From sequence record PQ505080.1: a stretch of 64,000 bases of DNA; one strand, given 5' to 3'. The notes under the pieces are model-generated. The model had not been told where the DNA came from, made no database searches, and saw only the letters and a program-made list of their open reading frames with translations. Every line of letters starts with the position of its first letter. Positions within the stretch are counted from its first letter, which is position 1. This DNA comes from Escherichia phage HMD-6. Below, piece after piece: positions 50,578 to 58,320 of this stretch. The translations under genes were made by a program, and so were the position numbers.

Positions 50578-51246
50578 ATGGCTGTAGCTTATCCTACAAT
50601 ACCAATTCCAGATCTTGAAGATGCAGAAACAGTCCTGAGTGATGACTTCTTGGTTGTCAACCAGACTGATGGGACAAGAAAGGCTAAGATTGACGATGTT
50701 GTCAACGATCTTAGCATTACTAAGATAGTCTATTTCACAGAGGGTGGTTATCTTAAGAGCAAGAAGGACTTTGCTTATGATCCAGAAACTAAGCGCTACT
50801 ACACGTGGAATGGGGATTATCCTAAAATAATCCTCCCAGACTCCACTGTAGAGGGTGCTGGGGGTGTGTCTGCAAATGCCTGGTCTGTTTTTGGTGAGCT
50901 TGCTGCAACTTCTTCTGGCAGAATAGTTGATTACGGATCTATCGGTGGTCAGCTTGATATGGATCTTGAAGTTGCGGATACCTTTAAGGTTCGACTAACT
51001 TCAAATACCACAATCTCTTTTGAAAATCAAACAGAAGGTCTTGAAGGGGTGGCGAGAACCATAACCGTATGCATTACTCAGACCTCTGGCGGCAACAAAG
51101 TCTATTGGCCTGGTAATGTTAAATGGTCCTACGGAAGAGATCCTATCCTAACATTTACAGCTGGTGCAACAGACATTTTCAAGTTGGAAACCTACGACAA
51201 CGGGCTAACTTGGTACGGGGCACTGATTATCGCAGGAGCTATCTAA
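50578..51246 (+). CDS. tail fibre-related protein sharing N-terminal anchor domain with giant fibre
   Basis: N-terminal ~80 aa (DDFLVVNQTDGTRKAKIDDVV ... YFTEGGYLKSKKDFAYDPE...YTWNGDYP) parallel the N-terminus of 53881..58320. Confidence 0.4.
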   Translation: MAVAYPTIPIPDLEDAETVLSDDFLVVNQTDGTRKAKIDDVVNDLSITKIVYFTEGGYLKSKKDFAYDPETKRYYTWNGDYPKIILPDSTVEGAGGVSANAWSVFGELAATSSGRIVDYGSIGGQLDMDLEVADTFKVRLTSNTTISFENQTEGLEGVARTITVCITQTSGGNKVYWPGNVKWSYGRDPILTFTAGATDIFKLETYDNGLTWYGALIIAGAI

Positions 51247-51247
51247 G

Positions 51248-56800: not shown

Positions 56801-58320
56801 AAGCGGATCGCGAAGGTATCTACCATCAAGAGGCAAATGCCAACGCCACAGCGGAAAGACACTACCCACCAGGGCAGCAGATGGCTGGTACGCTGATCGT
56901 GCTTAGAAACTCTGCCAACGAAGGTACAGGTTGTGTCCAGATATATAAAATGTATCTTGGGGGAACGTGGGAAAGGTACTATAATAACACTGGCAGCGGA
57001 ATGAACTGGAGCCCTTGGAAGAGAACGAGCTTCCCAGAAAGTACAACTGCCCCAGTCATGCCTGACCTGTGGTTGCCTTTAACCTCTAATCTAAAACCTG
57101 TACTAGGTGAAGGTGAGATGGTGTTCTCCAGACCTTCTACAGCAACATATTTCACTAAGCGCGGTGTCATGGCTGTTGCACAGGCAAACCAACCACGTTT
57201 CGAAAGAGATGGTCTGCTCATTGAAGGTCAAAGGACAAATCTGATGCTTAACAGTGAAGACCCGAGCAAATGGGGAGCCCAGTCACAGATTACGGTCGGT
57301 AACACTGTAACAAACACCAACGGCACAAAAGGTGCAAGATTTACAGTAAGCAACGTATCCGGTGTAGAAACAACGGCGTTAAACCTGGCTACAGTTCCAG
57401 CCACTCGGGGTGCAGATGTAACAGGTGCTGAGAAATTTTGTACTGGATCTATTATTGCAAGAGGTGGTAAAGCTCACCAGAGACTGCGTGTAAGATTCGA
57501 CATGTATAACGGATCCACCACAGTATTCCAGGGTGATGCCTATGTTAACCTGTCAACACTTGAAGTTAAAACAACAGGTGTTGCAGCTGGGAGAATTAAA
57601 GTAAAAGCTGAGAGATGGCAAACAGCCGGACCTGCTTGGATAAGGGTTGTTGCTACGTTTGAGGCAGTGGACTCTGACATGAATATTGGGTGCCAGTTCC
57701 AGATTGCACCACCGGATGGTTCTCAACATGCCGCAGGGGATTGGATTGACGTCGCAATACCTCAGTTTGAGTTAGGATCTTGTGAGTCCTCGTTTATCCC
57801 TACAGGGTCTTCACCAGTGACTAGGGCAGCAGACCTTTGTAAATTCCCAATGACTGATAATTTAGCACCTAGACCGTTCACCATCGCCGCTACGGTGGAT
57901 GCCAACTGGAGAGGTTGGGGAAAAGCTCCTAACGCAGCTCCTAGGGTTATTGATACAGAGCTCCATCAATCCGGTGCTGCATTTATCATGGGTTTTGGCT
58001 CTTCAGCAAATATTGCAGATGATGGTTATCCATATTGCGATATTGGCGGTTCAAACAGACGTGTCTATGAGATGGCTAAAACACGTAAATTGAAAATTGG
58101 GTTCAGGATAAAAGATGACGGTAAAACCTGCTCTTTTGCTAACGGATTGGTAAGTACGGAAACGCAATCTTCTTGGGAATTCCTAGCAGGAGGCGCTTTC
58201 ATCCGTATCGGTGGGCAAACAGCAACTGGTGAAAGACATTTGTTTGGTCATATTAAGGATATAAGGGTTTGGAACTCTGCACTGACCGACACCCAGCTTA
58301 TGATGGAGAGTGTTGAATAA
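53881..58320 (+). CDS. giant tail fibre protein with C-terminal LamG/ConA-like lectin domain
   Basis: 1479 aa; N-terminal anchor domain shared with 50578..51246; Gly/Asn/Thr-rich beta repeats; C-terminal ...HIKDIRVWNSALTDTQL motif typical of LamG-like jellyroll domain ends. Confidence 0.65.
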   Translation: MADIKVVRIESLPATTAVTEDDYLVVQQPDLTRRVKIGDVVHVDGTVSHVISFKEGGKLNGPMDFAYFEEEDLYLRWKGEFPHTVPALSSPYADGGITDAAWMVYTDPSLREELESTIGASMIMTAEGQSVQDVMDVTVQTANDAKALAQRVDFGTVHTVGDVIHLVNFVGPAVIEEGRTTNYPSEAAGEKFLNGVVSRRDTTTVDGIFRGATSGAMYTIAVTNGVATTKRIALRDEFKRLEANNPTRTVIRAGDDLNTAGYLQLDATGRWGMWNQQTASWQPLAIEQGGTGARDAAGVRINIGAFYKQRAALEANFNINNLTGNQDGIYYQPMTANATEANGYPAGSGAGHLIVWQNNANGGTGCRQEYYPFSNVDVWYLRTYQANTNQWTAWQPMVRPRNDDTFRSHIGLGKNNSPAFGHLYLAQYSGDVKSASGILHGDKYNTDGVLEHGYRIYSEVRNDNKAWLTIHLHKGAKGSETHRYLGFREDGVLDCPKYMQVGDLTGQLTNWGLGEWIRSSGAERGFWGSKKAAKMVVWDGGMDESGNGSLEWGVYNNRKAKWEPLPQAAGGTGATTLADAQNLFKVPIAAGVKDFLTLPRTAGMEDGKYYPIIVRTDPYYAPATGTDITLVTRSSSGGDPMNCATLQCHYRTGGWTDRGDSFYGVVNFYQNEKALLGMVAPTRGKQEYVAFYAEARAFPVSIYASRNVVEVFTREQDYQVGSVTNNQDGVKFVAPLQSADLNLAVLGDNNTNTRPIVDFKGTSGFYTGGGTQWHYIGTAERYAVMSKMNMPKVELWADGIDYLCYGSPRKALFSNAGFQCASDGTDDLTNGTFTSKCGNGAGLQGQAEFRSTPEAGQVIVRDVVGSAHRFYNFNKDGTFSAPSGFVCHTGADWNNQFGNNNPSKILAGNVNGPEGSMVVGGLSVAFSGNYAFQMAGRLDQLYTRSIEQGNHRAWNKVIQHRGQGLGTSDLNDYKADREGIYHQEANANATAERHYPPGQQMAGTLIVLRNSANEGTGCVQIYKMYLGGTWERYYNNTGSGMNWSPWKRTSFPESTTAPVMPDLWLPLTSNLKPVLGEGEMVFSRPSTATYFTKRGVMAVAQANQPRFERDGLLIEGQRTNLMLNSEDPSKWGAQSQITVGNTVTNTNGTKGARFTVSNVSGVETTALNLATVPATRGADVTGAEKFCTGSIIARGGKAHQRLRVRFDMYNGSTTVFQGDAYVNLSTLEVKTTGVAAGRIKVKAERWQTAGPAWIRVVATFEAVDSDMNIGCQFQIAPPDGSQHAAGDWIDVAIPQFELGSCESSFIPTGSSPVTRAADLCKFPMTDNLAPRPFTIAATVDANWRGWGKAPNAAPRVIDTELHQSGAAFIMGFGSSANIADDGYPYCDIGGSNRRVYEMAKTRKLKIGFRIKDDGKTCSFANGLVSTETQSSWEFLAGGAFIRIGGQTATGERHLFGHIKDIRVWNSALTDTQLMMESVE

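Follow-up and report, generated by a model that had tools for sequence, protein, structure and literature searches.

Why the same N-terminal segment should be found on a tail protein of 222 amino acids (aa) and on a tail fibre of 1479 aa, and what the far end of that fibre is built to bind, are the questions raised by one locus of Escherichia phage HMD-6. The locus comprises three consecutive tail genes, for proteins of 222, 865 and 1479 aa, within a stretch of 64,000 nucleotides (nt) of sequence record PQ505080.1 (hereafter, the window). The reading favoured here, at a probability of roughly 70%, is that of a conserved gp43-gp42-gp41 lateral-fibre module in which the small protein and the long fibre share a docking module, and in which the fibre ends in an exchangeable tip of glycan-binding type accompanied by a partner gene.

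The stretch was assigned to an rV5-like Vequintavirus, and its three genes to the orthologues of rV5 gp43, gp42 and gp41, by sequence comparison. The 7.7-kb region was 93–98% identical at the nucleotide level to more than 70 Vequintavirus (rV5-like) genomes of E. coli myophages, and its gene order was that of BASEL phage CarlMeissner (tape measure, tube initiator, plug, hub, spike, sheath initiator, then the 222-aa, 865-aa and 1479-aa proteins). Across the orthologous locus of rV5, LL12 and the BASEL Vequintaviruses, the 222-aa protein was 100% identical (including in BASEL CarlMeissner and HeinrichReichert), the 865-aa protein was conserved and fibre residues 1–985 were 94–100% identical; the gene order shared with the rV5 and BASEL phages and the near-identical N-terminal two thirds place the fibre among gp41-type lateral fibres. 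The fibre gene was 98% identical in nucleotides to that of vB_EcoM_SYGMH1. BASEL annotations describe the three products as "sialidase domain protein", "lateral tail fiber protein with glycosidase domains" and "lateral tail fiber protein", respectively. In rV5, gp43 (222 aa), gp42 and gp41 were all detected in virions by mass spectrometry (PMC3606486), and three genera (rV5-like, PVP-SE1-like and phi92-like) keep the order of a small protein, then a gp42-like one, then a large fibre that varies.

Comparison of the 222-aa protein with the fibre by BLASTP returned a single significant alignment (aa 8–105 against 7–105, 38% identity, E = 3e-18). Both motif boxes that the original prediction had described in parallel N-terminal segments lie within it, and that claim is upheld: the first reads DDFLVVNQTDGTRKAKIDDVV in the 222-aa protein and DDYLVVQQPDLTRRVKIGDVV in the fibre, and the second FTEGGYL..DFAY...YYTWNGDYP and FKEGGKL..DFAY...YLRWKGEFP, respectively. 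Against the six-frame open reading frame (ORF) set of the whole window, each N-terminus matched only its partner (E = 4e-17 and 2e-18), and the copies of the module therefore number exactly two; no third copy was found among these ORFs or in the complete tail cluster of a relative.

Both N-termini exceeded the 25-bit gathering threshold of PF18668 (Tail_spike_N, the TSP1/Gp66 N-terminal domain), with 41.0 bits (E = 2e-10) at aa 51–105 of the 222-aa protein and 38.5 bits (E = 1e-9) at aa 46–103 of the fibre. The peptide ahead of this domain lies outside Pfam coverage, and as aligned the module consists of two parts, an N-terminal peptide of about 45 aa (part A) and a PF18668 "head" domain (part B). 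Searches of PDB sequences matched the head of the 222-aa protein to gp13 (9occ), CBA120 TSP3 (5w6f) and G7C gp63.1 (4qnl), and that of the fibre to 9occ_G, 9d84_A (Gp48) and 9lna_A, all of which reach into the neck helix that follows (aa ~106–143, LR.EL...GAS..(T/A).(D/E)G..VQ). In both proteins the domain (aa 46–105) has the N-terminal position and helical neck of the family. Within the genus the module was 99–100% conserved while the fibre tip varied.

A hidden Markov model built from the two window N-termini was run against PVP-SE1 and phi92. In PVP-SE1 the whole module was recovered in gp51 (224 aa, E = 2e-34) and gp49 (712 aa, E = 2e-27), which flank the gp42-like gp50; gp49 is described in its GenBank note as a "putative fusion protein similar to rV5 gp43 at N-terminus". 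The phi92 match was confined to the first ~40 residues of gp140 (157 aa) and of gp143 (EndoN92, fibre I), with the consensus MAD..vKvSDLP......DYLVV.Q.D.TRK; these two proteins matched the window fibre at E = 6e-9 and 6e-7, and each other at E = 1.5e-6, and the PF18668 part was held by gp151 (E = 1.6e-13). All six proteins, from three genera, have the match at their extreme N-terminus. The PVP-SE1 paralogues were 48.5% alike, against 47% and 39% to their Vequintavirus orthologues; being closer to each other than to those orthologues, they hint that the shared N-terminus may have co-evolved with a common partner, and the pattern is compatible both with an old duplication and with homogenised copies.

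Beyond its module the 222-aa protein has a small C-terminal domain that matched the extreme C-termini of tail-fibre PHROGs 9017, 32568 and 22179, was found by tblastn in 525 phage records and was 42% identical to phi92 gp140 aa 44–157 (E = 4e-30). The phi92 authors list gp140 among fibre-like candidates, with a predicted fold like that of the Pa223 head spike gp52 (PMC13450770). Read from these matches, the 222-aa protein is a minimal plug-plus-tip protein and a putative receptor binder. Its stop codon is followed after 1 nt, in a different frame, by the start of the 865-aa ORF. A split or frameshifted gene was rejected as an explanation of this pair: alignments of the 222-aa protein with several fibre-tip PHROG profiles and with phi92 gp140 run to their very ends, and all three genera keep the two-gene arrangement. 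Despite the BASEL annotation of glycosidase domains, the 865-aa protein gave no Pfam, NCBIfam or PDB match in sequence searches; it is a candidate adaptor or arm that carries the sockets.

Downstream of the module the fibre is mosaic. Aligned with the 1266-aa allele of HeinrichReichert, it was 94–100% identical up to aa ~950, 76% and 42% identical in the next two 50-residue windows, and ~20% identical, about background, past aa ~1050. Among ~139 related phage records, ~35 matched the 3' third of the gene and ~100 matched only nt 1 to 2948–3085. These comparisons place the allele breakpoint at aa ~985–1058, in the second knob of the shaft. LL12, CarlMeissner and JeffSchatz have the same 1479-aa allele as the window, whereas rV5 and about two thirds of its relatives have an allele of 1266–1272 aa that ends in a Peptidase_S74 self-cleaving chaperone. 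The missing S74 domain had been noted in the LL12 paper (PMC7229145), and the BASEL work names the fibre gene as one of the two lateral-fibre genes that vary strongly among Vequintaviruses (PMC8594841).

By eye, similar knob-like segments were seen in the shaft at aa ~258–399 and ~962–1048 (GIYYQ..ANATEANGYP..GHLIVWQNNANGGTGCRQEYYP and GIYHQ..ANATAERHYP..GTLIVLRNSANEGTGCVQIYKMY), as were GGTGA collar motifs at aa ~291–296 and ~568–573. The knob-like segments gave partial matches to PHROG 6614 and 5481 only, and self-BLAST of the fibre at E<=1e-3 found no internal repeat.

In 175 other phage records, of T1-like, Queuovirinae, Dhillonvirus, T5-like and lambda-like phages, the C-termini of lateral or side fibres were 27–50% identical to the last ~420 aa; for fibres of Drexlerviridae, Queuovirinae, T5-like and lambdoid phages the identity was 44–50%. 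The 110-aa ORF that follows the fibre is inherited with this region: all 32 records in which it was found by DNA similarity also carry the cassette, always adjacent, diverged copies were found in LL12 and one further record, and in the four siphophage lineages inspected a 92-aa homologue (29–37% identity) overlaps the fibre stop codon. Such homologues take the same position in T1-like, Seuratvirus, T5-like and lambdoid phages. Judged by this distribution, the last ~420 aa and the 110-aa ORF form a horizontally exchanged two-gene cassette. The 110-aa protein had no Pfam or NCBIfam match and fell into no known chaperone family (Caudo_TAP, lambda Tfa, or T4 gp38 or gp57 type); its family is PHROG 1361 only, with function unannotated. 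Its position and co-inheritance are those of a fibre chaperone. Lambda has tfa after Stf, and in PhiR46_1 the homologue of the small ORF sits after Stf. The most economical inference is a tip-specific assembly (chaperone) or accessory protein, a role in tip assembly being fitting because the S74 allele has its own intramolecular chaperone and is without this ORF; after that allele the next baseplate gene follows directly.

The tip itself is predicted to contain two jellyrolls. For aa 1119–1304 a fold like that of a carbohydrate-binding module (CBM) is predicted: NF048003 (GTA_spike_fiber, for the gene transfer agent, GTA) matched at 75.4 bits against a curated cut-off of 36 bits (E = 8e-21, aa 1113–1317, profile positions 1–182 of 182), and the tip family profile matched Rcc01080 of the Rhodobacter capsulatus GTA (RcGTA) itself (E = 1.4e-11). 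The RcGTA head-spike fibre binds capsular polysaccharide (PMC7296036, PMC10218006). For the second jellyroll, which ends with the string HIKDIRVWNSALTDTQL at fibre aa 1458–1474, a HMMER search with aa 1290–1479 gathered 232 relatives. In 42 of 54 trimmed homologous domains Laminin_G_3 (PF13385) matched at E<=0.01 (best, 6.4e-14), and the alignment profile matched solved domains of the concanavalin A (ConA)-like class, namely 4qvs (6e-7), the NanA CBM40 4c1w (3e-5), pentraxins, trans-sialidase lectin domains and BoNT Hc-N. The model is a two-sheet jellyroll. CBM40 modules that bind sialic acid, and pentraxins, are among the small-domain structures closest to it, and neurexin, laminin and agrin were matched as well. 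A laminin G (LamG)/ConA-like fold of the fibre C-terminus is therefore well supported as a prediction, and the LamG-like end proposed for the fibre from its sequence stands.

Between the two domains (aa ~1296–1319; 57766–57837), a motif of the form Q(L/F)E.G...SS(Y/F)IPT....VTRAAD was near-invariant in 54 distant relatives. The same motif was observed in PDB 9b45_v aa 369–405, 8env_K aa 367–394 and 6tb9_F3 aa 243–280 (the Pa193/E217 baseplate wedge proteins and the RcGTA head-spike fibre). It may be a conserved joint between domains or between chains.

From these homologies and predicted folds, the mosaicism, the gene linkage and the incorporation of the rV5 orthologues into virions, we infer a docking partner for the module, glycan binding by the tip and a chaperone role for the 110-aa protein. 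By homology with CBA120 TSP1 and TSP3 and with G7C gp63.1, the two-part module would plug a trimeric fibre onto a platform of another virion protein, of which the 865-aa gp42-like protein or a baseplate wedge is the likeliest; related sockets on the phage would then bear a short protein that is invariant and a long fibre that varies. The fibre's last ~420 aa, comprising CBM4/22-like and LamG/pentraxin-like jellyrolls and travelling with the 110-aa gene, would reversibly bind surface polysaccharide (O-antigen or capsule type) as a primary receptor that modulates host range. Such binding is suggested by the fold and by the RcGTA homologue, and reversible binding of O-antigen or capsule-type polysaccharide by the CBM-like domain, the LamG domain or both is the best-supported reading. 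The BASEL study proposes that such fibres handle variable surface glycans, with enterobacterial common antigen and the lipopolysaccharide (LPS) core as conserved receptors (PMC8594841).

Several results weigh against this picture. The fibre's own sequence matched Laminin_G_3 at 20.2–21.3 bits (E = 3e-4 to 7e-4) over the last ~52 residues only, below the gathering threshold of 27.6 bits, and the LamG call consequently required the independent support described above. AlphaFold2 run on the whole cassette (aa 1050–1479) with 47 close homologues gave a predicted local distance difference test score (pLDDT) below 50 for the LamG part, and the good model of aa 1290–1479 depends on the trimmed alignment of distant relatives. 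The RcGTA head fibre is experimentally resolved at residues 2–10 only, so that the link to it rests on sequence and function rather than structure. LamG folds also serve protein-protein contacts, and for this reason the fold is no proof of glycan binding. A phage with the same allele, LL12, requires no more than LPS-core sugars on K-12 (PMC7229145), and the fibre is for that reason probably dispensable on rough laboratory strains. Finally, in sequence scans with Pfam and PHROG profiles, a T4 gp10-like XD2/XD3 platform was not found in the 865-aa protein or in the neighbouring tail proteins, and the Pfam scans recognised no docking domain of another kind in that protein or elsewhere in the cluster.

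The least unlikely of the alternatives concerns the LamG domain, which might be a structural, assembly or protein-binding part (with an outer-membrane protein or the 110-aa protein as partner), any glycan binding then falling to the CBM-like domain. Matches to neurexin, laminin and agrin fit this view, LamG, LNS and pentraxin folds often binding proteins; the experimentally capsule-binding homologue belongs to the CBM-like domain; and the LamG part is strongly conserved in the phage cassette family, with long invariant stretches, which would be unusual for a surface that determines specificity. However, sialic-acid-binding CBM40 modules and pentraxins are among its closest small-domain structural matches, and it is with this domain that the fibre ends, LamG-type tips being common among the receptor-binding proteins of phages.

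How the shared module is used is best seen in CBA120, where the D1 head of TSP1 docks onto the XD3 platform of TSP4 and TSP3 must have its head to join the complex (PMC8825819). The label "anchor domain" given in the original prediction is fair, since both proteins exceed the PF18668 cut-off and the CBA120 D1-D2 head is experimentally a docking element. Docking to the baseplate holds only in part: the segment is a docking module by homology, but the characterised partners are another fibre or adaptor protein and not the baseplate directly. Rather improbable is a single socket for which both proteins compete, with mixed virions or with the 222-aa protein capping the site or keeping its place. 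Both do carry the two-part module, the 222-aa protein is tiny and invariant, and a common baseplate site had been the first idea. Yet both rV5 orthologues are present in virions, and the 38% identity of the modules is divergence enough for sites to be discriminated, as between CBA120 TSP1 and TSP3. In the 2026 cryo-electron microscopy map of phi92, moreover, the three sets of fibres all show full six-fold occupancy; the L-shaped fibre I has gp143 as its tip, and fibre II, left unassigned, is joined to the base of fibre I (PMC13450770). Least probable is a shared N-terminus that is a relic of ancestry or a generic trimerisation "cap" without docking role, attachment being made through other regions or to unrelated partners: it would suit the lack of a docking platform recognised by sequence searches, the presence of PF18668 in many unrelated tailspikes and the modest identity of the paralogues, but it sits badly with a module kept at the extreme N-terminus of six proteins in three genera and conserved in the genus while downstream parts are exchanged, with the demonstrated docking role in CBA120 and with the co-evolution suggested by the PVP-SE1 paralogues.

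A more specific proposal is put forward tentatively. The ~45-aa peptide may serve as a "plug" of its own, borne by just those two proteins that sit on the gp42/gp141-like arm in rV5-, PVP-SE1- and phi92-like phages, and the CBM-plus-LamG tip with its ~100-aa acidic partner may be a self-contained host-range cassette that moves between myoviruses and siphoviruses, the small protein then exemplifying fibre-tip chaperones or accessory proteins of a new class. If true, the plug would assign the fibre I/fibre II architecture of this phage group and define a portable socket-and-plug pair for the engineering of receptor-binding proteins.

Coordinates of the features of the locus and of the genes that follow it (positions of the window)
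Feature	Position	Strand	Basis
222-aa tail protein, orthologue of rV5 gp43 / PVP-SE1 gp51 / phi92 gp140	50578..51246	+	ORF; PHROG 7760 "tail fiber protein", E = 8e-120
Part A, 222-aa protein (aa 1-45), peptide ..IPIPDLE....DDFLVVNQTDGTRKAKIDDVV	50578..50712	+	aligns with N-termini of fibre, PVP-SE1 gp51/gp49 and phi92 gp140/gp143
Part B, 222-aa protein (aa 46-105), PF18668 head	50713..50892	+	Pfam; PDB sequence matches
C-terminal ~113-aa small tip domain of 222-aa protein (aa ~110-222)	50905..51243	+	PHROG, tblastn, phi92 gp140 similarity
865-aa tail protein, orthologue of rV5 gp42 / PVP-SE1 gp50 / phi92 gp141	51248..53845	+	PHROG 2871 "tail protein", E = 0
1479-aa lateral tail fibre, orthologue of rV5 gp41, LL12-type allele	53881..58320	+	ORF; PHROG 6578, E = 0
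Part A, fibre (aa 1-45)	53881..54015	+	35-38% identical to phi92 gp140/gp143 N-termini (E = 6e-9, 6e-7)
Part B, fibre (aa 46-105), PF18668 Tail_spike_N	54016..54195	+	Pfam; PDB matches; 43% identical to phi92 gp151 aa 23-73
Conserved shaft (aa 106-985), two GGTGA collar motifs, knob-like domains	54196..56835	+	94-100% aa identity to HeinrichReichert alternative-allele fibre
Last knob domain and recombination zone (aa 986-1058)	56836..57054	+	identity drop against alternative allele; DNA match ends
Putative exchangeable C-terminal receptor-binding cassette (aa 1059-1479), from junction MPDLWLPL	57055..58317	+	homology to fibre C-termini of other phages
Predicted CBM4/22-like jellyroll (aa 1119-1304), NCBIfam "GTA head spike fiber" domain	57235..57792	+	NF048003
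Predicted LamG/pentraxin/CBM40-like jellyroll (aa 1320-1479), ending in HIKDIRVWNSALTDTQL	57838..58317	+	family profile, predicted fold
110-aa acidic ORF, cassette-linked	58320..58652	+	overlaps fibre stop codon (ATGA); PHROG 1361, E = 2e-25
PHROG "distal tail protein"	58750-59340	+	
188-aa protein	59327-59893	+	
DUF6950 protein, BASEL "cell wall hydrolase"	59881-60318	+	
gpJ-like protein, at least 1227 aa, runs off window end	from 60318	+	Ig_J, Ig_J_second, Phage_Tail_Tip domains

The genes after the fibre (58750–64000, plus strand) look like a tail-tip module of siphovirus type (lambda gpM/L/K/J-like) that lies within the baseplate cluster of a myovirus. Near position ~24000 of the window, GC skew and AT skew flip sign, from negative before to positive after, consistent with a switch from a minus- to a plus-strand gene block, i.e. 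divergent transcription units. The whole 50578–58320 region was also ~93% identical to ~18–23 GenBank records labelled "Campylobacter phage" (host Campylobacter jejuni; for example MG065635, MG065653, MG065654, MG065666 and MG065676), and the cassette was present in some "Listeria phage" and "Salmonella phage" fragments; the records so labelled are probably mislabelled or contaminant assemblies.

Every element of the locus is of a known kind, and it is largely an ordinary example of the mixing of receptor-binding proteins that does not overturn current understanding. The N-terminal domain is a curated Pfam family; the PVP-SE1 record had already pointed to a second protein with a gp43-like N-terminus, and the rV5 paper had likened the gp43 N-terminus to the P22 tailspike head (PMC3606486), so that the pairing taken up by the original prediction, which overlooked both, was on record in PVP-SE1 and in part in rV5. 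The cassette domain has been named by NCBI, and the absence of S74 from LL12 had been remarked on. Also missed were the two jellyrolls of the tip, its horizontal exchange as an allele and its linkage to the small ORF that follows. New here are the dissection of the plug into two parts, the connection of the plug with gp140 and gp143 of phi92, the position of the allele breakpoint, a tip architecture of CBM plus LamG, and the tip's strict linkage to the small partner gene across myophages and siphophages. Phages of the rV5-like group are popular candidates for therapy and biocontrol owing to their broad host range, and plug sharing, breakpoint and partner gene together offer a practical guide to swaps of receptor-binding cassettes. 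Plug sharing also yields concrete, testable assignments: the 1479-aa fibre shares its peptide with EndoN92 (fibre I) and, like it, lies downstream of a gp42/gp141-like gene.

Known systems close to this one include PVP-SE1 and phi92, in which gp51/gp50/gp49 and gp140/gp141/gp143 stand in the same order after the sheath-initiator gene, with the peptide common to the small and the large protein. In phi92 gp142 is inserted, gp140 and gp143 have the peptide (part A) only and the head (part B) is found in gp151 instead, whereas the window proteins carry both; the distal domains differ as well, phi92 having an endosialidase. CBA120 (TSP1-4) and G7C (gp63.1, gp66) resemble the window phage in having several receptor-binding proteins per virion with an N-terminal head of PF18668 type, which in those phages docks one trimer onto another. 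Their distal parts are beta-helix depolymerases, whereas the window fibre has lectin-like domains, and unlike them the window proteins have the extra ~45-aa peptide ahead of the head.

For the tip, Rcc01080 shares a homologous CBM-like domain and the QLE.G..SS.IPT...VTRAAD junction motif, but its place is on the capsid, where a single chain stands on a pentameric base, and it is without a LamG domain. Pa193 gp46 and E217 gp45 (18–20% sequence identity) are components of the baseplate wedge (triplex) and not tips of long fibres, and members of the ConA-like superfamily (LamG, pentraxin, CBM40) share only 8–16% sequence identity with the window domain. The Stf and Ltf fibres of T1-like, Queuovirinae, Dhillonvirus, T5-like and lambdoid phages have the same ~420-aa cassette, from a PLPDVWIP junction, followed by the homologous ~92-aa ORF; their N-terminal attachment domains (phage_tail_N, CarboxypepD_reg) and shafts are different, and downstream the siphophages have one more gene, which the window lacks. 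Such siphophage lateral fibres are assigned by the BASEL authors to O-antigen recognition (PMC8594841).

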